A stretch of 11,799 bases of DNA from a virus. Shown piece by piece: positions 2,208 to 11,617 of the stretch. Location: the UHGV virus genome UHGV-1607176. One strand, given 5' to 3'. How positions within the stretch are numbered: the first letter of the stretch is position 1; each line of letters starts with the position of its first letter. The notes beneath the pieces are model-generated. The model searched no databases, had not been told where the DNA came from, and saw only the letters and a program-made list of their open reading frames with translations. Made by a program: the position numbers and the translations under genes.

Positions 2208-2707
2208 GATTGCATAGGGTCCCAAATTCGTGGAAACGTTGATTGTGCGGTTCCATAGGCTTTAAGGAAACATCCCAGCCCATCGCCATAGCAACCGTAC
2301 AAATCCGGAAGATTGTTAATCAGGCACTGGTTCTCAAGGTCCTGGAACGGCGATTTCTCGGCGGTTGCCGTGAAGGTAATTGTCCAGTTAATCCCGTCTT
2401 CGGTGGACTCGGCGATAGTGGACGTAATGGTTACCTGATAATCTTCGATGCCCATGCCGAAGTCGTGCGCCATCCAGAAACTTGACGCACCGCCGTCTAC
2501 TTTTTCGAGGAACGACAGAAACGCCTGTCGCCCCATTGCGGATGTAATCAGGGTTACGCTCACCGGGAACACGTCGTAATACGTGTCGCGCCCCTGACGT
2601 ACACCGCCACCAGCTAAATCAACGCTCCAGACGTTGTTACGTCTGGTCATCGAGTAGCCTTTCGATACAATTGGCTTAAGGCTACGTGGGAAATATAAGT
2701 CGCTCAT
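2204..2707 (-). CDS. Minor tail protein, lambda gpM-like
   Basis: 167-aa ORF immediately downstream of the tape measure gene (start overlaps the TMP stop). Segment YYDVFPVSVTLITSAMGRQAFLSFLEKVDGGASSFWMAHDF resembles the gpM core pattern SVTLS...FLE..GG..SF-W, recalled from memory. Confidence 0.55.
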   Translation of the reverse strand: MSDLYFPRSLKPIVSKGYSMTRRNNVWSVDLAGGGVRQGRDTYYDVFPVSVTLITSAMGRQAFLSFLEKVDGGASSFWMAHDFGMGIEDYQVTITSTIAESTEDGINWTITFTATAEKSPFQDLENQCLINNLPDLYGCYGDGLGCFLKAYGTAQSTFPRIWDPMQS

Positions 2708-4725
2708 TATTTGAACCCCGGCGCGTTTCTTGTGGCCTTGCGAGCCTTGCTAATCTTACTGTTGCTGTTCTGCAAAGACGCGGCAACCTGTTCTTCAATG
2801 ATGATACGCAAACGGCCCTCATCATCTTGCTCAGTGGATACGTTGCCGATTTGAGAACTCGTGTTGTTTACGATAGTAACATTAGATGGGCCACTATTTC
2901 CGCTATTATTACCGTTTAACTGCTGCCGTGTTTGACTTGCATTGGTCGCCCTGCCAGAACCCGCCATCTTGATAATCTCAGGGCCGCGTTCACCAACCAG
3001 GTAACTACCGCCAGCGTTCATTTGCCCGCCTTGCTCACGCGCGCCGCTAATCTTGGCGATGTTCGCCACCCCCGCCGCGACAGCCAGACCCGCGGCAACC
3101 GGAGCGAGTGCCGGGCCGACAATTGGAATAGCAGCAGTTGATTTATAGGCTTCGATAGCAGCCGTGTAAGTGGCAATAGTCGCTTGCGTTATGGCGAACG
3201 CTTTGTACGCAGCGGACGTCTCCCCCAGTGCGGATTTAGCATCCGCTGCCATGCTGCCGAATGCGTCGGCGGTGGCGTTGGCTTGTGCAATATTGCTCTG
3301 TTCGTTCAGGTTACGCACTGCATTAGCGTATTCTTCTTCGCTGATTAGTTTCTGTTTAAGGAAATCGTCCAGTTGCTTAAGTTTGGCGTCATTCTGCCGT
3401 TGGATTTCCTCGAACTCTGTGCCACCAAGCGCCTGTAGTTTCTCCAGATATGCATCAGCATTGTTATACAGCGCATCTCGTTGTGCCTGAAACTCCGCCA
3501 TGATGTCACTTTTCGACTTCTCGTAGTCAGCGTCGCTTACGAGTTGCTTGTCGTGGAACTCCTGCAATTTAGCCAGTTTCTGTTTCTCTTTGGCGTCTAT
3601 CCGTTCTAACTCTGTTCCGGTGTTTGTGTCTATTTGAGCTATAAACTGGTCTGCGGCTTTCTGTGCGCTTTCCTGCGCGCGAGCGTCGGCGCGGGCTTGA
3701 GCATCTGCTCGTTTCTTAGCTGCGGCAGCGATACGATTCTGCCTGTCTATTTCCTTCTGTGCCCTGTCCGCCTTATCCTTTTCATACGTCTTCTCAGATT
3801 GCTCTACCCCTTTTCGCTCGGCTGCGCGGGTCTTTTCCTCCACACCAAGGTAGTTAAGTTCATTTCGCAGTTTATTTATTTCCATCTGCGCTTCTGGCGT
3901 TTTGGCGTTTATGCCGTCCAGGTAGGCGACCAGCCCTTCTCGAGCTCCAGGAACCCCAGCTGCGATTGCTTTCTGAGCAACTTCAATACTGCGTAACTCT
4001 TTGGCGGTCAACCCCGCAGCTTCCGCAGCGGATTCGTACTGGAAAGCCACGGCCCCGGCAGCGTCCCCGCCTTGGGCTATCTGTGATGCGGCAAGGTTGG
4101 TGGTCAACTTCTGAAACAGAGATTGGGCTTTTGTTACCTTATCAATAGCTTCAACAATCTTATCTGCGGTGGAGTTAGCCTGTATGGCGGTTGCCTCTAG
4201 TGCCTTATTAAGAAATGCCATCTTCTCCGCTGTTGTTGCCCCGACAGCGTCCAGTTTTTCCAGTGCGTCATTCATGTCATACACACCGGGTGTGGCCTCA
4301 TTAAGAGCGTCATCAAGGAACTTAGTAGCTTCCTCCAGTTGTTTAGCGGTATCCGTTGAGTTACTCAAAGACGCGTACAGCGCGCCGCCGATTACGGTGG
4401 CGATAGTCAATACCGTGCCCGCAATTGGATTGAATGCGGACACTAACTGACTACCTTGTTGCGTGAAAGCCGTGAGGGCGGACTGCCCCCCTTGGATTTG
4501 TACGATAAAGTCCTGTACCTGATACCCAGCATTACCTATTGACGCCCGCATCGCGTTCATCTTCGGGGTTGCCGCGGAGGTGGTGTCCGTTAGTTTCTTT
4601 GTGCTGGAATCCGCTTTCCCAGCGGAACTACTAAGGTTATCTAACTGCTTTGCTGCTTGCTCCGCTCCAGTTGCCTGGACTCGCACCATTAAACTCGCGG
4701 TATCAGCCATTATAATCGTCCTCAT
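2707..4725 (-). CDS. Tail tape measure protein
   Basis: 672-aa ORF, the largest in the window. Ala/Gln/Lys/Glu-rich coiled-coil-like central region. C-terminal GGSYLVGERGPEII-type motif typical of tape measure proteins. Canonical position after the chaperone pair and before gpM-like. Possible alternative start at 4710 (MADTASL). Confidence 0.85.
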   Translation of the reverse strand: MRTIIMADTASLMVRVQATGAEQAAKQLDNLSSSAGKADSSTKKLTDTTSAATPKMNAMRASIGNAGYQVQDFIVQIQGGQSALTAFTQQGSQLVSAFNPIAGTVLTIATVIGGALYASLSNSTDTAKQLEEATKFLDDALNEATPGVYDMNDALEKLDAVGATTAEKMAFLNKALEATAIQANSTADKIVEAIDKVTKAQSLFQKLTTNLAASQIAQGGDAAGAVAFQYESAAEAAGLTAKELRSIEVAQKAIAAGVPGAREGLVAYLDGINAKTPEAQMEINKLRNELNYLGVEEKTRAAERKGVEQSEKTYEKDKADRAQKEIDRQNRIAAAAKKRADAQARADARAQESAQKAADQFIAQIDTNTGTELERIDAKEKQKLAKLQEFHDKQLVSDADYEKSKSDIMAEFQAQRDALYNNADAYLEKLQALGGTEFEEIQRQNDAKLKQLDDFLKQKLISEEEYANAVRNLNEQSNIAQANATADAFGSMAADAKSALGETSAAYKAFAITQATIATYTAAIEAYKSTAAIPIVGPALAPVAAGLAVAAGVANIAKISGAREQGGQMNAGGSYLVGERGPEIIKMAGSGRATNASQTRQQLNGNNSGNSGPSNVTIVNNTSSQIGNVSTEQDDEGRLRIIIEEQVAASLQNSNSKISKARKATRNAPGFK

Positions 4726-4972
4726 TACGGCCTTCGAACAGTGCGTCTAGGCCCATTATTAAGTCTACCTCAAGCAACGAGAACGGCTGTTTATGCAACT
4801 CTGCGTACGCTGTAAGGTGGTGATATTGGAGCATTTCCCTTGGTATTAGCACATTATTGCGGCTTACAAACTTCAATGCGTAGTATTTATCCATTATTTT
4901 CATCATATCGCTCGGGCATTCCGGCGGGGTTTCCTCAGGCTCCTTCGGTACAGGTAACCCCATAGCCGCCAT
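4703..4972 (-). CDS. Tail assembly chaperone, gpT-like segment (possibly made as a -1 frameshift extension of the upstream chaperone)
   Basis: 89-aa ORF between the gpG-like gene and the TMP. Its reading frame is -1 relative to the upstream gene and stays open across the 89-nt gap back into the last about 7 codons of that gene. Weak ribosome-binding site before its own ATG. Confidence 0.45.
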   Translation of the reverse strand: MAAMGLPVPKEPEETPPECPSDMMKIMDKYYALKFVSRNNVLIPREMLQYHHLTAYAELHKQPFSLLEVDLIMGLDALFEGRNEDDYNG

Positions 4973-5061
4973 AGCGGCCTTGTGCCCGTCGGCGATGGAG
5001 TCGAACTCACGTCTCCTTTGCCGTATAACCCAGCGATACCTCGCATATTCGTAAAGCGCTT

Positions 5062-5478
5062 CTACTTTACAGATAAAGCTTTGCGGCTCTCAGCATGGTG
5101 TTGAGCGACAGCCCCTCCCAACCCTTTATACTCCTTCAACAGCTTGACCAACGCTTTCTTAGTGAACTTCTCCTCGAAGGACCACCCTACAACAACAACG
5201 GCAGCAAGTGCATCGTTAAGTTTAGCCAATTCACTGTTTAATTCCGTGTTATAGCGCGCCCAGTCCCCTTTCTCGCGGCACTCCGCGTCGAGCGGTTTCA
5301 GGCGGTCAAGGATGTCGCGGTAAGCGGAGATAAAATCCTTAGCTGCGGCGATTGAGTCGTCGCAGTCAGGCCCCATCACCTGCAACCACTCCCCTGAGTC
5401 ACTGCCGTCCGGTAGCAGGATAGGCATCTTAGTTCCCGCAGCGTGGCGGGACGCGAAATAAAAATCAGAAAGTTTCAT
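5062..5478 (-). CDS. Tail assembly chaperone (gpG-like)
   Basis: 138-aa ORF immediately upstream of the T-like ORF and TMP. AAGGA ribosome-binding site 8 nt upstream of the ATG. Assignment is by position and size class only. Confidence 0.5.
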   Translation of the reverse strand: MKLSDFYFASRHAAGTKMPILLPDGSDSGEWLQVMGPDCDDSIAAAKDFISAYRDILDRLKPLDAECREKGDWARYNTELNSELAKLNDALAAVVVVGWSFEEKFTKKALVKLLKEYKGLGGAVAQHHAESRKALSVK

Positions 5479-5571
5479 TCTTTAATCCTTTGGTTAAGAG
5501 GTTGTTGGTTAAAGAGAAATGCACCAGGCGGTAACCAACCGCTTTTCGTGCGCGACACTAGGTGCAAAATT

Positions 5572-5601
5572 ATTCTAACACACTACTTGCACACCCCAAT
5601 A
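5572..5601 (-). promoter_or_regulatory. Candidate extended -10 promoter for the minus-strand tail genes downstream of the island
   Basis: On the minus strand: TGtTAGAAT (reverse complement of plus 5572-5580), with a poor -35 (ATTGGG region). It is positioned to restart transcription of the chaperone/TMP genes after the terminator at 8131-8150. Sequence-only prediction. Confidence 0.3.
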
Positions 5602-5615
5602 TAATAGGGTACTAT
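5587..5615 (+). promoter_or_regulatory. Candidate sigma70 promoter driving the plus-strand island
   Basis: TTGCAC (5587-5592), 17-nt spacer, TACTAT (5610-5615), about 40 nt upstream of the first island ORF. A TATAAT at 5600-5605 overlaps but has no good -35. Confidence 0.35.
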
Positions 5616-5655
5616 TCACTTACACCAACGTTATTAACTTAAATAAGGAATTAAA

Positions 5656-5982
5656 ATGCGTAAATTAATCATAGCCATGGGTCTTATTTCTTTTTGCGCG
5701 GTAGGGTCCCAGTGTGAGCAAGTATATAGTGAAACCCCTTTAGTAACTTCCGGGGTGCTTGATTCAGCCCCTCCGTCTGCCGTTAGTGCGTTTAAAACCG
5801 CTGCTATTCGCGAATGTAATGCTGCCGTGCGCGCTGGCGGGTCTGGCCTTGGTCTTGAATTGATGACATCCCTTGTTGTTGAGTCTGTAGATGTTAACAG
5901 CCCCACTTTCAGCAGCCTACTGTTAGCCACTCGTTTGCAAATGGTTACAACCGGATGGTCAATAGGCGCAGAAAGTAAATAG
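5656..5982 (+). CDS. Small exported protein of unknown function (108 aa, N-terminal signal peptide)
   Basis: Strong ribosome-binding site (AAGGAA 6 nt before ATG). N-terminus MRKLIIAMGLISFCAVGSQC has a basic n-region, hydrophobic core and an A-V-G cleavage-type site. Not a canonical lipobox. Mature part is Ala/Ser/Val-rich with two Cys. Confidence 0.6.
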   Translation: MRKLIIAMGLISFCAVGSQCEQVYSETPLVTSGVLDSAPPSAVSAFKTAAIRECNAAVRAGGSGLGLELMTSLVVESVDVNSPTFSSLLLATRLQMVTTGWSIGAESK

Positions 5983-6047
5983 TTGCCTTTATTTAAAGGA
6001 ATGCACTGTGGTTAAATAGGACAAATCCTAAACACGAGGAAATAGGC

Positions 6048-7202
6048 ATGGCCCAGAAGAAAATAACCGACGAACAGTTACAGGAAGAATTGAACGCTGG
6101 GATGAAGAATATCGACATTGCTCGTAAATACGGCATCTCAGACCGCGTTATTCGTATCCGTAAAGCGAAACTAGCGAAGAAAGGCGTAGGCCACGGGCGT
6201 GACGTTAGCCACCTTGTGCCGGACGGCTACAAGATTAAGGGTACATCGTCTCTGGTTGATGAGTTAGGCAACACTAAACTGCAATGGGTTAAGACCGACA
6301 CCGATGCGGAACGTCAGGTCGAGTTAATGAAAGCCGTTGTGGACGAGATGAAAAAAGATTTACCCAAGTATAAGCCAGTCACTTTGGCCAAAAATGGGAC
6401 AGATGACGACTTATTAAATCTTTACACAATAACAGACCATCACATAGGGATGTTGGCGTGTCAAGAAGAAGGCGGGGATGATTACGACACCACAATCGCG
6501 GAATCTCTCGCGGTTGACTGGTTCAACAGTGCGGTTTGTATGAGTCCACAGAGTGGTGAATGTATCATTAACTTCTTAGGGGACCAAATGCACAACGACG
6601 GCATGAAGGCAATGACCCCTATGAGCGGTCATATTCTTTCAGCGGATAGTCGCCTGTTTAAAATGATACGCACGGCCATTAAGGTTATCAAGCTGGCTGT
6701 CTCACTGTGCTTGCGAAAACACAAGAAGGTTAAACTTCTTATCTGTGAAGGTAACCACGACCTTAGTTCTTCTCTGTGGCTCCGGGAGATGTTCTACGAG
6801 GTATACACAAATGAGCCTCGCGTCGAGGTTAACCGGGAGGTGTCACCGTATTATGCGTACAAGTTCGGGGATTGTATGATTTCAGCACATCACGGGCATT
6901 GTTCTAACTTTGCTAAGGTAGAGCAGGCTATAATCGGTAAGTACCGGGAGATGTACGGGCGGTGTAAGTTCACATATGTCCATACGGGGCACCTCCATCA
7001 CAGGGCGGTTAAAGAGACTAATCTGCTAATTGTTGAGCAACACCAGACATTAGCGGCTAAAGATGAGTATTCTAGTAAGGGCGGCTATTATTCAGGTAGA
7101 AGCGCAAATGTGATTACATACCACAAACGTTACGGGGAGGTGTCCCGCATAAGTATACCTGTCGAAATGCTGCGAGACATAAACCCAAAATCGACATACT
7201 AA
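6048..7202 (+). CDS. HTH domain fused to a calcineurin-like metallophosphoesterase (predicted phosphodiesterase/nuclease)
   Basis: 384-aa ORF with GAGGAA ribosome-binding site. N-terminal about 45 aa is helix-turn-helix-like (NIDIARKYGISDRVIRIRKAKL). It carries the full ordered metallophosphoesterase motif set: DHH (6435-6443), GDQMHNDG (6579-6602), GNHD (6750-6761), HHGH (6888-6899), GHLHH (6987-7001). Confidence 0.8.
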   Translation: MAQKKITDEQLQEELNAGMKNIDIARKYGISDRVIRIRKAKLAKKGVGHGRDVSHLVPDGYKIKGTSSLVDELGNTKLQWVKTDTDAERQVELMKAVVDEMKKDLPKYKPVTLAKNGTDDDLLNLYTITDHHIGMLACQEEGGDDYDTTIAESLAVDWFNSAVCMSPQSGECIINFLGDQMHNDGMKAMTPMSGHILSADSRLFKMIRTAIKVIKLAVSLCLRKHKKVKLLICEGNHDLSSSLWLREMFYEVYTNEPRVEVNREVSPYYAYKFGDCMISAHHGHCSNFAKVEQAIIGKYREMYGRCKFTYVHTGHLHHRAVKETNLLIVEQHQTLAAKDEYSSKGGYYSGRSANVITYHKRYGEVSRISIPVEMLRDINPKSTY

Positions 7203-7217
7203 AATATAGGTGAAAGT

Positions 7218-7718
7218 ATGGATTGGAGTGAGGTTTTTAGCTACAAAAATGGCGTCCTATACTGGAAAGTCAAATCATGTCGCCGTAACGATGTGAATAT
7301 AGGTGATGTGGCCGGGAGTTTGTGTAAAAACGGCTATTGGTATGTCATGTTTGGTAACCGTAAGTTTAAAAGGTCGAGGGTGGTGTATGAGATGTTCTCA
7401 GGTAAGATTCCAAAAGGATTTGTCATAGACCATACTAACCATGATACCTGTGACGACAGAATTGAAAACCTGTCATGCAAATCTAGAAGGGACAACATGG
7501 TTAACGTGAAAAGGCGCAAAGATAATACCTCTGGAGTTACGGGTGTGGCGCGGAAAGGAAAAACTAAGTGGAGAGCTTATGCCGTTGTCAACGGTAAGCA
7601 GATTAGTAAAACATTTGACAGAATAGAGGACGCTTTCGCTGAAAGAATTTACATGTCTGTGGCTAATAGGTTTCACATAAATCATGGACTGACAACATTC
7701 AACAACGGTTATAAATAG
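7218..7718 (+). CDS. HNH homing endonuclease with C-terminal AP2 DNA-binding domain
   Basis: 166-aa ORF with AGGTGA ribosome-binding site. HNH motif GFVIDHTNHDTCDDRIENL (about 7425-7472). AP2-like segment SGVTGVARKGKTKWRAYAVVNGKQISKTFDRIEDAFAERIY (about 7530-7655). Confidence 0.85.
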   Translation: MDWSEVFSYKNGVLYWKVKSCRRNDVNIGDVAGSLCKNGYWYVMFGNRKFKRSRVVYEMFSGKIPKGFVIDHTNHDTCDDRIENLSCKSRRDNMVNVKRRKDNTSGVTGVARKGKTKWRAYAVVNGKQISKTFDRIEDAFAERIYMSVANRFHINHGLTTFNNGYK

Positions 7719-7727
7719 GGTGTAGAG

Positions 7728-7958
7728 ATGACTTCAAAATACAACCGCACAATGACAAACACTCACGGCAGCACCATGACAGTAGACGTTTATGATGTGC
7801 TCCGTGCTTTCGATATCCGTGACCCGGCGCTACAGCATGCGTTAAAGAAGTTATTGTGCATGGGCTTGCGCGGACACAAGGACACCGGAACCGACTTAGC
7901 AGAAGCAATTGAAAGTCTGGAGAAGTTACGGGAATACCGAAGCAATATTGATGAGTGA
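7728..7958 (+). CDS. Small phage protein, DUF3310-like (function unknown)
   Basis: 76-aa ORF with ATG start. Pattern VYDVLRAF...ALQHALKKLLCMGLRGHKDTGTDLAEAIESLEKL resembles the DUF3310 signature (AIKYL-RAG-KG...DL-KA-YL) as I recall it. Not verified by search. Confidence 0.5.
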   Translation: MTSKYNRTMTNTHGSTMTVDVYDVLRAFDIRDPALQHALKKLLCMGLRGHKDTGTDLAEAIESLEKLREYRSNIDE

Positions 7959-7965
7959 AAATATT

Positions 7966-8127
7966 ATGAAAACAATATATGTAATCCGAGTATACGACGA
8001 AGAATGGGACGAGTGGGTTGATATTTATGCCGTTAGTAGTAAGGAAGAGGCCTCTAAAGAAATGACAGAACGAAGGGACCGAGGCCAGTTAACTAACTTC
8101 TACGAAATGCCGTTCAAAAGTGAGTAA
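7966..8127 (+). CDS. Small acidic hypothetical protein (about 53 aa)
   Basis: The track ORF 7909..8127 starts at a TTG and overlaps the previous gene. In-frame ATGs lie at 7951 and 7966, and 7966 is chosen because it follows the upstream stop. Sequence MKTIYVIRVYDEEWDEWVDIYAVSSKEEASKEM... is acidic. Followed directly by the terminator. Confidence 0.4.
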   Translation: MKTIYVIRVYDEEWDEWVDIYAVSSKEEASKEMTERRDRGQLTNFYEMPFKSE

Positions 8128-8130
8128 GAA

Positions 8131-8157
8131 AAGGCCCCTTTCGGGGCCTTAGTTTTA
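8131..8157. terminator. Bidirectional rho-independent terminator between the convergent island and major tail gene
   Basis: Perfect 8-bp stem AAGGCCCC (8131-8138) / GGGGCCTT (8143-8150) with 4-nt loop TTTC. Followed by a T-run on the plus strand (8153-8156) and a TTCTT stretch on the minus strand. Lies in the 27-nt gap between the plus-strand stop (8125-8127) and the minus-strand stop (8155-8157). Confidence 0.75.
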
Positions 8158-9321
8158 TGCGTAACTAATACGTTGAATTACGATAGACGACTGATACTGG
8201 TTGCCTGTGGACTGCCCTTCTATACTTTGGGTAATTGACTCAGGCCCACCAATCTCAGGTGTAACCGCCGTGAGTTCTGCGCGTTTCAAACTAAAAGACA
8301 TAGCCCCGTTTACCCCCGCCAGAATAGAGTTAATCTCCACCTGCTGTTCGTTGATAAACTTCTGAATCATAGCCATGTCGTACAGCTTGCCGGAGATGGA
8401 GAAGGTGTTAGCCGCGCGGCTACGTTCCACAAACGCTACGTTAGTGTTGCCGAGTTCGAACTGCGCCGACGCGCTGTTGTCGTTGGTGATGGTCAGGCTG
8501 TCGCAACGCAACGGCGTAGAACCGTCGAACACAGAAACATCGACCGAGGAGAATGGCTCGTCACCAAACGTAACAGAGGAGAAATCAGAACCAGACGGCT
8601 GCGTGGTGAGAATCTCCTGACTGCGACCGATGAACGGGAAGCTGCCAGTTACCATCGCGTTAACAGCCTGTTCGATGGTAAAACCAGAAACTTCCACGCC
8701 TTTGGTTAACGTGTACGCGTCAGTACCGCCGCACTGGCCTTTGTACCAGGTAAGGATAGAGAACGTCTTACACGCGTTACCGGTTTCCAACGTGTCGCCA
8801 GTTTTAGCCTTACTAGTTTTTGTCTCGGTGGTCAGGGTGTGTTGGATGCCCGCACCAGTAACAACCGTAGCCGTTACTGCAGTAACAATAAATGGTTTTG
8901 CGTTATCGCCTGTTAAATCGGTAAACGCAATCAGGTCGCCTACCCCAACTCCGTCAGTGATAAAACTGCCGGTAGCGCGTGTGAACGTCTTGCCCGCGGG
9001 TGCGACGGTAATCGATAGTCCTGACCGGGAAACGCCGGATTGCCACGTAGAGCCTAAAGCCCCGGCTAACCAGTCGTCCTGACTTTTAGAGCTAAGCTCA
9101 ATAGCGTATTCTCCGCTAACCTGCTTGTTACCGGTGCGGATGGATGTGGTTTCTCGGCTGCCGTCAAGTTCGTTGGAGGTCAGCGTGTCGCGGGTAATGG
9201 CAGGAACGCCGCCCGTGTTGCGCAACGGCGACCATACCGGGTTAGCCGGTGTTACGCCCGGGGTAGTTTCTGCCACATAGAATTGCGCAGTATTCGCGCC
9301 CTTAAAAGGAGTTGTAGCCAT
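8155..9321 (-). CDS. Putative major tail (tube) protein
   Basis: 388-390-aa ORF. The track start at 9327 is a GTG overlapping the upstream stop, and the first ATG is 9321..9319 with AAGAGG upstream. It is the last large gene of the neck module before the chaperone/TMP genes and is followed by a strong terminator. Thr/Gly/Ser-rich. Assignment is by synteny; a capsid-related role is not excluded. Confidence 0.5.
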   Translation of the reverse strand: MATTPFKGANTAQFYVAETTPGVTPANPVWSPLRNTGGVPAITRDTLTSNELDGSRETTSIRTGNKQVSGEYAIELSSKSQDDWLAGALGSTWQSGVSRSGLSITVAPAGKTFTRATGSFITDGVGVGDLIAFTDLTGDNAKPFIVTAVTATVVTGAGIQHTLTTETKTSKAKTGDTLETGNACKTFSILTWYKGQCGGTDAYTLTKGVEVSGFTIEQAVNAMVTGSFPFIGRSQEILTTQPSGSDFSSVTFGDEPFSSVDVSVFDGSTPLRCDSLTITNDNSASAQFELGNTNVAFVERSRAANTFSISGKLYDMAMIQKFINEQQVEINSILAGVNGAMSFSLKRAELTAVTPEIGGPESITQSIEGQSTGNQYQSSIVIQRISYA

Positions 9322-9323
9322 AT

Positions 9324-9740
9324 TCACAGCCTCTTGGTGAATGCAATAAAGTTAATTGACAATGGTCGTTTGGCCCATCCGTTTTCTACAATCAGCGGCC
9401 CCAGGCTAACCGATTGAACCTCGGCGCAGATGTCGTTACGTGAAAATGACTTACCTGCTTTAAACGCCGTGTTAAGTAAGTCTGCCATTTTATTGATTGG
9501 CGCGCTACCTTTCACCGATGCGTAGTTAATATCTACCTGATAGACGCCAGCGCGTTGTTCCGTGAAGAACAAATCCGCCTGTTCCGTATCCGCCAGCAAC
9601 ATGTAACTTGCCAGATATGGTGTATCGGTTGACGTCGGTGCGCCGATATTTTCAAGCGCGACTTTGATGCCGTTGGCGGTTCCGAAGGCTACCAGCGGCA
9701 CATCAAACGCTTTTGTTAAGTCCTCAAAGTAGCCCATCAT
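9324..9740 (-). CDS. Neck / tail completion protein (tail terminator-like by position)
   Basis: 138-aa ORF with ATG start, translationally coupled to both neighbours by ATGA overlaps. Lies immediately upstream of the putative major tail gene. Confidence 0.4.
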   Translation of the reverse strand: MMGYFEDLTKAFDVPLVAFGTANGIKVALENIGAPTSTDTPYLASYMLLADTEQADLFFTEQRAGVYQVDINYASVKGSAPINKMADLLNTAFKAGKSFSRNDICAEVQSVSLGPLIVENGWAKRPLSINFIAFTKRL

Positions 9741-10132
9741 TTCACCTTGTTGGCTTCTTCGTTAATGAGTTGCTGGAAGCGGGACACGTTAGTCCTGACC
9801 ACCCCGGCGGGTGCCTGTTGCGACCAGCCATACTCCAGCCGTTGTGCATACGGCAGGTTATTTGTCAGCGTGAACTCGTGCCAGTCTGCGGCTTTCAGTA
9901 CGAAACTCGTAGCGTTTCCGGTTGCCGTGTTTCCTGATTTATCCGTAGCGTCTGTAATACCGGAAGCAGGAGTACCGCCAGATGCCATCCAGTTCATACG
10001 AAAGCGACCCGTATCTACCGGACTCGCCTCTATAATAGCGGAAAACAGCTTGATAGACACCTGGCGCATCACCGTCTCAGGGTTCTTCTTCGCCTTTTCC
10101 ACGAACTTAGAGACATCGAGCGCGAAACTCAT
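9737..10132 (-). CDS. HK97 gp10-like tail-component / head-tail joining protein
   Basis: 131-aa ORF containing DTGRFRMNW and YAQRLEYG, which resemble the hallmark DTGRLR...YA..EYG pattern of the HK97 gp10 family (from memory). ATGA overlaps on both sides. Confidence 0.55.
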   Translation of the reverse strand: MSFALDVSKFVEKAKKNPETVMRQVSIKLFSAIIEASPVDTGRFRMNWMASGGTPASGITDATDKSGNTATGNATSFVLKAADWHEFTLTNNLPYAQRLEYGWSQQAPAGVVRTNVSRFQQLINEEANKVK

Positions 10133-10488
10133 TTTCTCACCTGAATAAAGTAGGCCACGACATCATCATTAACCATCTTCTTCTCAATGGTTACGACGGA
10201 CCATTGCTCTCCGCCGAATTGAACCTTGTCTTCCATCTTCGGTACGACACTGTAATCGGCTTTAACAATCATGTCGCCGGCCTGAATCGTCGTACCATTT
10301 ACCAGTCCCGCGTTTACCGGAACCGGAACGGCCTTCAACGGCAACACTTCATCGTCAGACCATACGTACTCGCCGAGGGCTTCATCCCACACTTTCGAGC
10401 CAGCGCGAATCAGCGACACCGTGCTGCCGAATTTGGTTAGCAGGTGCGTACCCACGCCTTGCATACGCTTACTGAAAGCGGTGCTCAT
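10129..10488 (-). CDS. Head-tail adaptor / head closure-like protein
   Basis: The track ORF extends to 10542, but the ATG at 10488..10486 overlaps the stop of the upstream gene (TGATG), matching the coupling pattern of neighbouring genes. That gives about 119 aa. Assignment by position and size. Confidence 0.4.
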   Translation of the reverse strand: MSTAFSKRMQGVGTHLLTKFGSTVSLIRAGSKVWDEALGEYVWSDDEVLPLKAVPVPVNAGLVNGTTIQAGDMIVKADYSVVPKMEDKVQFGGEQWSVVTIEKKMVNDDVVAYFIQVRK

Positions 10489-11102
10489 CAGGCGGCCTCC
10501 AGTCTTGAGATAACCAGTAGCGCGGATGGTGCTGTGCCCCATGCGGTCACGGTAGCCGCTTGCGGGTATACGCCGCCGTAGTTGCTTCCGGAGCTATCTC
10601 GCATAATCTGAACGGCAAACGTCTGGCCTGCTGTCGGGTTAATAACAACGCGGGATTCAATCGGAATCGTTACGTCGGCGCTGACTAGTTTCGTGGCGGC
10701 GGGCGAGCCGTACTGAGCGCCATTTACTAAAATACGTGATGGCAAGATTGATGTACCGCTAGCACCCGTGCGCCCCGCCTGCAACTTGATGCGAACGGCG
10801 TAGTTTCCGGGGGTGTTGAACGTAACCAGCCCTGCGGCATTAATCGTTACTGGGTCGGATGCGCTACCCTGAGCGGAGCCAAAAGTTAACTGCAATGCTG
10901 TATCTACCGCGGTTGGTGCTTGTGCTATGGTAGACGCAGCACGTAGAACTTCAACTTCTTTAACGCCTGGAGTGGCGTAGATAGGCGAGTCCGCCATCTG
11001 CGTCATTACCTCGCGCAATGCGGCGGGGGTAATAAGACCGGTCGTGTTGTCAGGTAGCTCGGACCCGATTAGCGTAAATATCTCTGTTTTAGTCTTCGCC
11101 AT
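10488..11102 (-). CDS. Phage structural protein of unknown role (neck/head module)
   Basis: 204-aa ORF with ATG start. Ala/Thr/Gly/Ser-rich with beta-rich appearance. No motif I can name. Confidence 0.4.
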   Translation of the reverse strand: MAKTKTEIFTLIGSELPDNTTGLITPAALREVMTQMADSPIYATPGVKEVEVLRAASTIAQAPTAVDTALQLTFGSAQGSASDPVTINAAGLVTFNTPGNYAVRIKLQAGRTGASGTSILPSRILVNGAQYGSPAATKLVSADVTIPIESRVVINPTAGQTFAVQIMRDSSGSNYGGVYPQAATVTAWGTAPSALLVISRLEAA

Positions 11103-11104
11103 TT

Positions 11105-11617
11105 TTAACCCCGGTACACATTAAATGAGAAGCCGTTGTTAAGACCGCCACACAGTAACGGGCGTAAAGCGTCGTCCGCGGCGGTAATAGCAGTTGTAGC
11201 CCCGCTGTTGCCGTTGTTGAAGTAGGTCACTGTCACCGCACCCTCAACACGCTCAGTCTGCACGGAACGCCCGTCTGAGTTAGCCCGCACCTCAGTACCC
11301 GCGCCATAGGTAACAGCAGCAATTACCTGCGCAAGAATTACCTGCTTCGGGATGACGTTGTTAGCTACAGGGAAGCCGTTCAACGTTACACCAGTGCGAG
11401 GATATGCCAGTGACTGTTCGGCGGATACACGACGACCACACATCTGCGGTTCTGCAAGCCCGACATAAGTAGCACCGTTGCGCAAGGCCACCTCTGCGGC
11501 GGTATCGTCCGCAGGCAGCTCCAGACCATAATTAGCCGCTAACGCGCGGGCGTCAGCCAGACTAATGTAACTGTCGGCATTAGGGACGATTGCCCCAGTT
11601 TCCACGATTAGCGGCAT
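11105..11617 (-). CDS. Head-tail connector protein (gp6 / DnaT-like domain family, tentative)
   Basis: 170-aa ORF with GAGGA ribosome-binding site. N-terminus MPLIVETGAIVPNADSYISLADARA resembles the conserved N-terminus of phage gp6-type head-tail connector proteins as I recall them. Confidence 0.45.
   Translation of the reverse strand: MPLIVETGAIVPNADSYISLADARALAANYGLELPADDTAAEVALRNGATYVGLAEPQMCGRRVSAEQSLAYPRTGVTLNGFPVANNVIPKQVILAQVIAAVTYGAGTEVRANSDGRSVQTERVEGAVTVTYFNNGNSGATTAITAADDALRPLLCGGLNNGFSFNVYRG

Follow-up and report, generated by a model that had tools for sequence, protein, structure and literature searches.

The five plus-strand genes lying among the minus-strand tail genes of the virus genome UHGV-1607176 are best explained as cargo at an old Guernseyvirinae insertion hotspot, which is bounded by the tube stop codon on one side and by an RNA structure in front of the chaperone gene on the other; we regard this reading as likely. 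The source phage is a virulent, Kagunavirus-like siphophage of the Guernseyvirinae. In the 11,799-nucleotide stretch analyzed here (the window), the island consists of ORFs of 108 aa (5656-5982), 384 aa (6048-7202, the largest), 166 aa (7218-7718, an HNH gene), 76 aa (7728-7958) and 53 aa (7966-8127), all on the plus strand. The original prediction had recognized this arrangement of five genes, which holds; the ORF listing gives the fifth gene as 7909-8127 with a TTG start, but its conserved part begins at the ATG at 7966. The flanking genes are all on the minus strand: on the right, the tail tube (major tail) gene (8155-9327; Phage_tube_2, PF18906, E 7e-37) followed by the tail terminator gene (9324-9740), and on the left, the tail assembly chaperone pair (5062-5478 and 4703-4972; PF08748 and PF23812, both ORFs being covered by phrog_15027) and the tape measure protein gene (2707-4725). 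Between the convergent island and tube genes, a terminator scan recovered the predicted strong bidirectional terminator on both strands, as a hairpin at 8131-8150 with a loop of 4 and 8 pairs, 6 of which are G-C; the segment 8121-8220 that contains it is 83-90% conserved among relatives. The impression that the island is more A/T-rich than its flanks is borne out by computed GC contents of 0.445 for the island versus 0.519 and 0.530 for the left and right flanks, and the island is the lowest-GC 2.7-kb stretch of the window. As judged by GC3, this shift is uneven among the island genes: the 108-aa, HNH and last ORFs have values of 0.40-0.46, and the 384-aa and 76-aa genes, at 0.54, fall near the bottom of the flank range (0.535-0.66). 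Pfam and PHROG searches gave no structural family match for any island product, in agreement with the earlier view that none has a structural role.

Comparison of 80 related tube-to-chaperone loci revealed that the gap between the two genes extends from 93 bp in island-less loci up to 3.4 kb, with 9 loci below 200 bp, 12 at 200-700 bp, 14 at 700-1700 bp and 45 at 1700 bp or more. Relatives in which the tube gene adjoins the chaperone gene therefore exist: nine loci have gaps of 93-184 bp (L060, L063-65, L067, L071, L079, L080 and L087), and the tube, chaperone and tape measure genes are contiguous in more distant outgroups. Among the occupied gaps, 71 of 71 have a GC content below that of their own flanks, with a mean deficit of 5.6 points, and the cargo varies. 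The tabulated island-gene matches all run against the tail genes, as do the longest ORFs of the small gaps, except in L078; L038 carries an additional 613-aa ORF on the same strand as the tail genes. Kagunavirus, Jerseyvirus and Cornellvirus share the insertion site, its divergent promoter-like cassette and the terminator. The layout had been described as typical of acquired moron cassettes. The accessory nature of the insertion is upheld by the empty-site relatives, the variable cargo and the low GC, but a recent or single acquisition is not, as the same site is used in three genera, and the moron label sits awkwardly on the largest gene, whose family occurs in 2009 phage records, mostly in DNA-metabolism contexts. 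By the definition of Juhala and Hendrix (PMC3594210), the island shares with morons its absence from syntenic relatives ("more DNA") and a base composition deviating from that of neighboring genes. Of the promoter and terminator that a moron should own (PMC3594210), the terminator was found, and the candidate promoter is a conserved -35/-10-like pair below the scan threshold. Classical morons are also expressed from a repressed prophage to the advantage of the lysogen, a criterion probably inapplicable to the Guernseyvirinae, for which a lytic lifestyle has been described (PMC8425127).

The left border of the hotspot is formed by a three-way-junction RNA motif (5503-5568, minus strand) just upstream of the chaperone gene that resembles the int-alpA RNA (RF02996). 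The window motif scored 35.0 bits (E 3e-4) against a gathering score of 35.8, and the motifs of three relatives scored 35.8 (L003), 34.2 (L001) and 31.6 bits (L011), that is, at or slightly under the gathering score; a gathering-mode run of RF02996 on the relatives gave zero matches. The likeness to int-alpA includes the three-way junction, the U-rich tail and identical conserved single-stranded stretches (CCUAG, CGAAAAGCGG and CCGCCUGG). The genomic context differs: here the motif lies between tube and chaperone genes, in virulent phages, rather than in an integrase or alpA neighborhood. A covariance model built in this study recovered the motif in 31 loci, island-less ones included, and the whole XY1 genome contains one copy. 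In the alignment, both partners have changed in a compensatory way in 12 of 14 pairs, and the share of cells that can pair is 93% versus 35-58% in slid controls, counts that lean towards structure because the alignment was fitted to the model; an independent RNAalifold run gave 5 of 14 pairs. As island-less relatives also carry the motif, the island sits between the tube stop codon and the motif, which is an ancestral border of the insertion site and part of the tail operon, not of the island.

Two candidate promoters adjoin this RNA motif. The leftward one (5572-5599, minus strand) comprises a TAGAAT -10 element (reverse complement of 5572-5577), preceded by TG, and a TTGGGG -35 element (reverse complement of 5594-5599), and its predicted start coincides with the 5' end of the RNA motif. 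All island-bearing loci have a TAGAAT-like hexamer immediately upstream of the motif, a place taken by the tube stop codon in the island-less loci. The rightward candidate (5587-5615, plus strand) consists of TTGCAC (5587-5592), a 17-nt spacer and TACTAT (5610-5615), so that the -35 boxes of the two candidates interdigitate. The rightward -35/-10-like elements are conserved in position in an alignment of 38 relatives: Jerseyvirus has TTGCAT-N17-TATTAT in the same columns irrespective of the gene that follows, and the single-gene island of L050 has, as read by eye, TTGCGC-N17-TATATT at equal spacing from the opposite-strand -10. The promoter-like cassette is thus conserved regardless of cargo. 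A generic sigma-70 consensus scan of 5479-5655 called no promoter, the leftward candidate included. For the 177-bp region 5479-5655, described earlier as non-coding with promoter-like elements, these elements stand in view of the 38 relatives, but it is not solely an island promoter, and most of its length is taken up by a tail-operon RNA element that is ancestral. These compact back-to-back elements suggest a mechanism in which one element would drive the cargo against the direction of the tail genes, the bidirectional terminator would end the island, and transcription of the tail operon would begin anew from the other element at the RNA structure. In Kagunavirus K1B4, a coarse time course placed the first island gene in a temporal class other than that of the tail genes (PMC12645636).

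The 384-aa protein (6048-7202, plus strand) combines an N-terminal helix-turn-helix, a small beta domain and a calcineurin-like metallophosphoesterase domain. All five metallophosphoesterase motifs with their metal ligands are present (DxH, GD, GNH[DE], H and GHxH), and D130, H132, G178, D179, N236, H237, H282, G314 and H317 are invariant and H315 nearly so among 37 homologues of 31-73% identity. It matches phrog_704 and phrog_284 and no Pfam family at E <= 0.01, although PF12850 is a precomputed match in one homologue cluster; the helix-turn-helix gave a weak FixJ-type match. A search of the PDB returned no sequence match. The fold is that of a metallophosphoesterase, with Mre11, SbcD and PolD DP1 as the nearest folds and the cyclic-nucleotide phosphodiesterase Rv0805 as the top-ranked Foldseek match. 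In contrast to Mre11/SbcD and related metallophosphoesterase nucleases, the window protein has an added N-terminal helix-turn-helix, and Pfam and PHROG searches of the island showed no Rad50/SbcC partner gene. The "SbcD" label in the XY1 record belongs to a 45-aa ORF elsewhere in that genome. Metallophosphoesterases that degrade host DNA have been reported in mycobacteriophage A10ZJ24 (Gp48; PMC12287305) and in T5 (A1; bioRxiv 10.64898/2026.04.02.716235). Membership in the T5 A1 family was rejected: A1 matches phrog_1745 only, and hhalign of the window protein with A1 gave a probability of 21% over a 21-residue motif. The 384-aa protein is probably a DNA-directed phosphodiesterase or nuclease; it would bind DNA and act on it in a Mn2+/metal-dependent manner during takeover or replication, with breakdown of host DNA as the leading guess.

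The distribution of this phosphoesterase bears on whether the island is accessory at all. Its family, with 4218 representative clusters, closes the replication module in Drexlerviridae and immediately precedes the small terminase gene in Dhillonvirus, and every Kagunavirus and Jerseyvirus locus examined has the gene, as would be expected if the island were a core DNA-metabolism operon of early or middle timing that replication or recombination requires and that lies in the tail region by chance. However, the genus Cornellvirus lacks the gene, the complete genome of FSL SP-031 having no homologue at any position, which makes the phosphoesterase accessory at the subfamily level; about 35 related loci lack it in the gap, nine lack any island, and all other island genes are variably present. 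We therefore consider a core operon unlikely. A different function is suggested by the neighbors of the gene in relatives, where the 76-aa gene is replaced by a HAD phosphatase (HAD_PNKP PF25109, E 9e-21; PHROG "polynucleotide kinase") and a dNMP-kinase-like P-loop kinase directly after the phosphoesterase. Bacterial Pnkp has a metallophosphoesterase healing domain. The island could then be an RNA-repair or anti-defence module, in which the phosphoesterase would heal 2',3'-cyclic phosphate ends in the manner of bacterial Pnkp and, with the kinase and HAD phosphatase of relatives, undo tRNA cleavage by anticodon nucleases of the host, or would degrade cyclic-nucleotide immune signals, as the best rank of Rv0805 might suggest; this is less probable still.

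The homing endonuclease noted in the original prediction is confirmed by an HNH_3 domain in the 7218-7718 product (PF13392, E 6e-16, 58.2 bits versus a cut-off of 24.8). The HNH gene separates the phosphoesterase gene from the 76-aa gene in the window and in L002, L031, L042 and L043; in L003 and L014 these two neighbors abut or overlap without it, and L056, L044, L068 and L001 retain HNH remnants. Two independent microhomology deletions have left such remnants, phage XY1 carries a chimera, and at least three unrelated HNH genes occupy the island of different relatives at two junctions. The window-type phosphoesterase allele (92-99% identical) is accompanied by the HNH gene or a remnant in 8 of 8 loci, which span Kagunavirus and Jerseyvirus backbones, and none of the other alleles (50-61%) has this HNH gene or a remnant. 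The phosphoesterase-HNH block is 92% identical in nucleotide sequence to Jerseyvirus, with tube proteins merely 68% identical. On this sequence evidence, the HNH gene is a selfish mobile homing endonuclease. Like the free-standing HNH endonucleases of virulent phages (T4, T5 and SPO1 types), it encodes an HNH_3 domain, is inserted between genes, has a patchy distribution and decay remnants, and is linked to particular flanking alleles. The linkage of allele and HNH gene could reflect co-conversion but also fits the inheritance of one linked block, and the loci are not phylogenetically independent; by co-conversion, the endonuclease may have moved the phosphoesterase allele next to it between phages of Salmonella and E. 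coli.

Of the small 3' genes, the 76-aa product matches the C-terminal part of phrog_2452 and belongs to a family of 774 phage records. The 53-aa product shares 96% identity with the ORF at the 3' end of the island in XY1; its gene is variably present and absent from most loci. The nearest relatives change along the island, being Kagunavirus-like for 5454-5643 and 6016-6337, Jerseyvirus-like for 6338-7727 and XY1-like for 7972-8220, a pattern indicating that the hotspot cargo is modular and that its modules are exchanged independently. With these different nearest relatives and a site, promoter cassette and terminator common to three genera, a single cassette newly acquired by this phage alone, as the original prediction would most simply be understood, is very improbable, despite the low island GC, a 108-aa allele with no more than 60% identity to deposited phages and the finding of no phage record covering >=80% of 4600-9400.

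The first island gene points to the cell envelope. The 108-aa protein (phrog_14165) has a conserved N-terminal signal peptide, invariant cysteines C20 and C54 and a predicted helical fold (AF2, pLDDT 80), and is probably exported and disulfide-bonded on the strength of these features. It has no Pfam, NCBIfam or PADLOC match, no characterized member of its family was found, and a fold search with the model gave no informative match. The family, as defined by iterative HMM search, contains 47 clusters, nearly all on contigs of <= ~45 kb, and in several loci it alone makes up the island. The first island gene of Kagunavirus and Jerseyvirus belongs either to this family or to Imm_superinfect (PF14373, E 8e-14), never to both, and the latter, T4-Imm-like gene occupies the position in many genomes behind the same promoter region. 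An assignment of the 108-aa protein itself to Imm_superinfect was rejected, as it has no PF14373 match and its positional equivalents in relatives match instead; Imm_superinfect is a two-helix membrane protein, in contrast to the predicted helical, two-cysteine protein with a cleaved signal peptide. The hotspot of other relatives carries lipoproteins and true homologues of HK97 gp15 (41% identity, pairwise E 2e-10). The first position of the island is not taken by the envelope genes in L057-61.

HK97 gp15, of the YebO family, is an experimentally demonstrated exclusion protein encoded in the tail operon beside the chaperone and tape measure genes (PMC3594210). Like the island, HK97 gene 15 is an accessory element in a siphophage tail operon with deviating composition; it is autonomous, being equipped with a promoter and a terminator of its own, and its product is located in the envelope (PMC3594210). 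However, HK97 is temperate and the present phage virulent, and gene 15 stands alone, on the tail-gene strand and flanked by the chaperone and tape measure genes, whereas the island is multi-gene, on the opposite strand and between the tube and chaperone genes; the 108-aa family is also unrelated to gp15. The superinfection exclusion guessed for the island in the original prediction fits this context of T4-Imm-like or HK97-gp15-like proteins. Position alone makes the 108-aa protein a candidate superinfection-exclusion or envelope factor, which would act in the cell envelope, most likely by excluding superinfecting phages. A wider proposal, which we rate as doubtful, is that the tube/chaperone junction is a docking site for interchangeable envelope exclusion genes (Imm-like, HK97-gp15-like, lipoproteins and the secreted two-cysteine family), that the 108-aa family is a new periplasmic class of superinfection exclusion directed against tail-mediated genome delivery, and that the interdigitated divergent promoters and the int-alpA-like RNA form a switch between expression of the cassette and of the downstream tail genes.

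As a phage accessory cassette, the island is an element of a well-known kind and leaves current concepts unchanged. It is a textbook-style case of a virulent phage tolerating foreign, oppositely transcribed genes inside an essential late operon, at a site that brings its own terminator and a promoter-like element that may be able to restart the operon, and a natural series from the empty site to a six-gene island is available. The int-alpA RNA, an orphan motif, gains here its first context other than integrase, and the helix-turn-helix metallophosphoesterase is widespread, occurring in thousands of small siphophages. The exported 108-aa family may block superinfection, which would matter for phage cocktails because Kagunavirus and Jerseyvirus phages are in therapeutic use.

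The minus strand of the window encodes the neck and tail module of a siphophage, comprising a head-tail adaptor (11105-11617), neck and tail-completion proteins, a tail terminator (9324-9740), a tail tube protein (8155-9327; Phage_tube_2, E 7e-37), two tail assembly chaperone ORFs (5062-5478 and 4703-4972), a tape measure protein (2707-4725) and minor tail proteins. A further ORF (at least 447 aa) is cut off by the left end of the window. Megablast places the window in Guernseyvirinae, with 402 matching phage records, and its backbone is that of Kagunavirus, with a tube protein 95-98% identical to that of E. coli phages. The two chaperone ORFs (4703-5478, minus strand) are separated by an 89-bp gap (4973-5061) and are spanned by a single PHROG profile, phrog_15027 (259 positions), suggesting the programmed frameshift product that is usual for tail assembly chaperones. 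The tape measure protein is 672 aa long, versus 779 aa in phage XY1, and the two align only over the C-terminal ~320 residues (56% identity); tail length or the N-terminal region of the tape measure may differ between the window and its close relatives.

As the original prediction stated, five plus-strand genes (5656-8127) lie within this minus-strand operon. They encode proteins of 108 aa (5656-5982) and 384 aa (6048-7202), an HNH_3 endonuclease (7218-7718), which is the homing endonuclease anticipated in the island, and small proteins of 76 aa (7728-7958) and 53 aa (7966-8127). A hairpin at 8131-8150 closes the island and scores as a terminator on both strands, in agreement with the strong bidirectional terminator proposed there. 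The A/T-richness that had been judged by eye is borne out by computed GC contents of 0.445 for the island versus 0.519 and 0.530 for the flanks, and the island is the lowest 2.7-kb stretch in the window. The shift is uneven: the first gene, HNH gene and last ORF show it most. Searches of Pfam, NCBIfam and PADLOC with the 108-, 384-, 76- and 53-aa proteins gave nothing except a weak FixJ-type helix-turn-helix match. That the HNH insertion had split a gene and left the 76-aa ORF as a piece of it was ruled out; the same ORF is intact in HNH-less relatives.

The distance between the tube gene and the chaperone gene was measured in 80 loci retrieved via the tube protein. The gap is gene-free and only 93-184 bp long in nine loci, 200-700 bp in 12, 700-1700 bp in 14 and 1.7-3.4 kb in the remaining 45. 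In distant outgroups (Vibrio and Stenotrophomonas phages; tube identity 27-32%), the tube, chaperone and tape measure genes are contiguous. The gene-free gaps and the contiguous outgroup genes together indicate that the island was inserted into an operon that ancestrally lacked it, as had been predicted. All tabulated island-gene matches across the 80 loci run in the opposite direction to the tail genes, as do the longest ORFs of the small gaps, except in one locus (L078), and the GC content of occupied gaps is below that of the flanks in 71 of 71 cases, with a mean deficit of 5.6 points. The insertion site is common to Kagunavirus, Jerseyvirus and Cornellvirus. Regarding the acquired moron cassette that had been proposed, its accessory, moron-like character is upheld; a private or recent single acquisition is not, since three genera share the site, and the island is old and modular. 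In the related locus L038, the gap (8171-11245) holds a same-strand ORF of 613 aa and an opposite-strand member of the 108-aa family, with none of the other island genes. Elsewhere, XY1 carries a lone opposite-strand gene between its tape measure and minor tail genes (L089:5247-5897), and a Cornellvirus carries an opposite-strand PAPS reductase gene and a small ORF among its head genes (L090:24473-25327 and 26333-26512). Opposite-strand inserts in late operons seem to be a recurrent habit of the subfamily. The uncultured relative L057 has two tRNA genes (216-287 and 518-605; Rfam, 58 and 39 bits) upstream of its structural genes. An imm gene and homing endonucleases have been listed as genome features of Jerseyvirus (PMC8425127), and in the literature searched, neither the hotspot nor the 108-aa family nor the RNA motif discussed below was found described for these phages.

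The cargo of the island is assembled from exchangeable parts. In Kagunavirus and Jerseyvirus, the first gene belongs to the 108-aa family or to Imm_superinfect (PF14373), with no locus having both, and the second encodes a metallophosphoesterase of 376-384 aa. The phosphoesterase gene is followed by the 76-aa gene or by genes for a HAD_PNKP-type phosphatase and a dNMP-kinase-like P-loop protein; in XY1 (L001:4663-5720) and many Kagunavirus loci, such a pair (162 and 189 aa) replaces the 76-aa gene, and its deposited names ("acid phosphatase" and "replication factor C large subunit") are misleading. HNH genes and the small terminal ORF are variably present, as is an Ant/Rha protein in Jerseyvirus. 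The window itself is a mosaic, ~90% identical to Kagunavirus at 5454-5643 and 6016-6337, 92% identical to Jerseyvirus at 6171-7961 and 95% identical to XY1 at 7972-8220; no deposited phage exceeds 60% identity to its 108-aa allele.

The HNH gene lies between the phosphoesterase and 76-aa genes, which abut or overlap in HNH-less Kagunaviruses. Two Jerseyvirus loci (L056 and L044) retain an in-frame HNH remnant of 16 codons (L056:9216-9275), the deletion falling between short AA(T/C)GG repeats corresponding to 7253 and 7700 of the window. A third Jerseyvirus locus, L068, has a different deletion between TGAAAG repeats at 7217 and 7640 and keeps the last 26 HNH codons (L068:9291-9340). The remnants in L056 and L068 derive from two different microhomology-flanked deletions. 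In XY1, a chimeric ORF (L001:4103-4666), deposited as "calcineurin-like phosphoesterase", begins with HNH codons 1-61 and ends with the terminal ~125 codons of an additional phosphoesterase copy, of the Kagunavirus type, and looks like the scar of illegitimate recombination during allele replacement. The HNH gene of the window, or a remnant of it, accompanies the window-type phosphoesterase allele in eight of eight loci, whether the backbone is that of an E. coli or a Salmonella phage, and is found in none of the loci with other alleles. Unrelated HNH genes occupy the same junction in two loci (L008 and L015) and follow the 76-aa gene in two others (L032 and L036). This distribution is the picture that would be expected of a homing endonuclease cycle with co-conversion.

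The 177-bp spacer at 5479-5655 is kept whichever first gene follows, as judged from an alignment of 38 relatives. On the tail-gene (minus) strand, positions 5503-5568, which immediately precede the chaperone gene, match the int-alpA RNA motif (RF02996) at 35.0 bits versus a gathering threshold of 35.8 (E 3e-4), and the single-stranded stretches are identical to the int-alpA consensus. Scores in relatives range from 31.6 to 35.8 bits, and a gathering-mode Rfam run on the relatives returned no int-alpA match. Weak hits to DUF2815-RNA and the histone stem-loop were treated as chance. A covariance model built from 12 sequences found the motif in 31 loci, including island-less ones, in which it fills the tube-chaperone spacer; the whole XY1 genome has a single copy. 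Compensatory changes occur in 12 of 14 pairs, with 17 G-U cells favoring the tail-gene strand, and RNAalifold, run on an alignment made independently, supported 5 of the 14. As the motif is also present in island-less loci, it is ancestral to the tail operon, with the island lying between the tube stop codon and the motif.

The promoter-like elements originally predicted in this spacer escaped a generic sigma-70 consensus scan of 5479-5655, but conserved candidates emerged from the alignment of the 38 relatives. Immediately upstream of the motif, every island-bearing locus has a TAGAAT-like hexamer, often preceded by TG, and in island-less loci the tube stop codon occupies its place. This pattern suggests a leftward promoter (within 5572-5615; TTGGGG-N16-TGnTAGAAT) that would start transcription of the tail operon anew from the base of the motif. 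A candidate rightward island promoter (5587-5615; TTGCAC-N17-TACTAT) has a counterpart, TTGCAT-N17-TATTAT, at the same columns in Jerseyvirus; both promoters are assigned from conservation. The -35 boxes of these back-to-back elements interdigitate, the rightward one lying inside the spacer of the leftward promoter. Since the predicted starts are ~57 bp apart, RNA polymerase at one promoter may exclude it from the other. In the transcriptome of the Kagunavirus K1B4, which shares the island layout of the window, the first island gene and the tail genes fall into different temporal classes, although the classes are coarse, over a 120-min course, and this is the only island gene named (PMC12645636).

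The 384-aa protein is a full-length member of phrog_704, a family with 4218 representative clusters and 2009 phage records. It had no Pfam match, and a PDB sequence search with it gave nothing meaningful. The metal-ligand residues are invariant across 37 homologues. An AF2 model (pLDDT 86.6) comprises an N-terminal three-helix domain, a beta hairpin domain and a catalytic domain; its Foldseek ranking was generic (TM 0.3-0.45), and no subfamily could be assigned. The gene ends the replication module in Drexlerviridae and lies just before the small terminase gene in Dhillonvirus. The complete Cornellvirus genome FSL SP-031 is without it, so that the phosphoesterase is dispensable for the life cycle of the subfamily. 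Destruction of host DNA has been demonstrated for two phage metallophosphoesterases, mycobacteriophage Gp48 (PMC12287305) and T5 A1 (bioRxiv 10.64898/2026.04.02.716235). We therefore propose that the 384-aa protein would be a nuclease or phosphodiesterase acting on DNA, its leading role being the breakdown of host DNA and the salvage of nucleotides; the dNMP-kinase and phosphatase neighbors in relatives fit with this proposal. T5 A1 itself was rejected as a homologue; the two belong to different sequence families and different PHROGs, and the alignable part is limited to a 21-residue GNHD..S.WL motif. Nothing relevant emerged from the literature searched for Drexlerviridae phosphoesterases in connection with escape from defence.

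The 108-aa protein begins with a predicted, typical signal peptide (MRK, a 13-residue hydrophobic stretch and AVG/SQ). A word-based search with this protein alone found three near-identical proteins; iterating an HMM search across the ORFs of every gap linked it with 24 proteins encoded at other loci, and a profile search gave 47 clusters, nearly all on contigs of up to ~45 kb. None of these clusters has an annotated function, the named ones being "hypothetical protein". C20, just past the predicted cleavage site, and C54 are invariant in the family, and a lipobox is present instead in some members (L057-61). The 108-aa family supplies the sole island gene of Cornellvirus FSL SP-031 and of several uncultured relatives. 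The AF2 model is a small helical bundle (pLDDT 80), for which no informative structural match was found. The same hotspot can also hold Imm-like proteins, lipoproteins or single-helix proteins of 62-66 aa, the last being homologous to HK97 gp15 (41% identity across 34 residues; pairwise E 2e-10). HK97 gp15, an inner-membrane exclusion protein, is the original moron product, and its gene lies inside the HK97 tail operon beside the chaperone and tape measure genes (PMC3594210). Considering these occupants, our best guess for the 108-aa protein would be an envelope or exclusion role, by hotspot position only. The functions given here for the island are inferred. The island is a real feature of a well-known kind, a moron-like accessory cassette that includes a homing endonuclease and sits in a tail operon, and the parts most worth pursuing are the family of predicted exported proteins with two cysteines and the int-alpA-like RNA of the junction.
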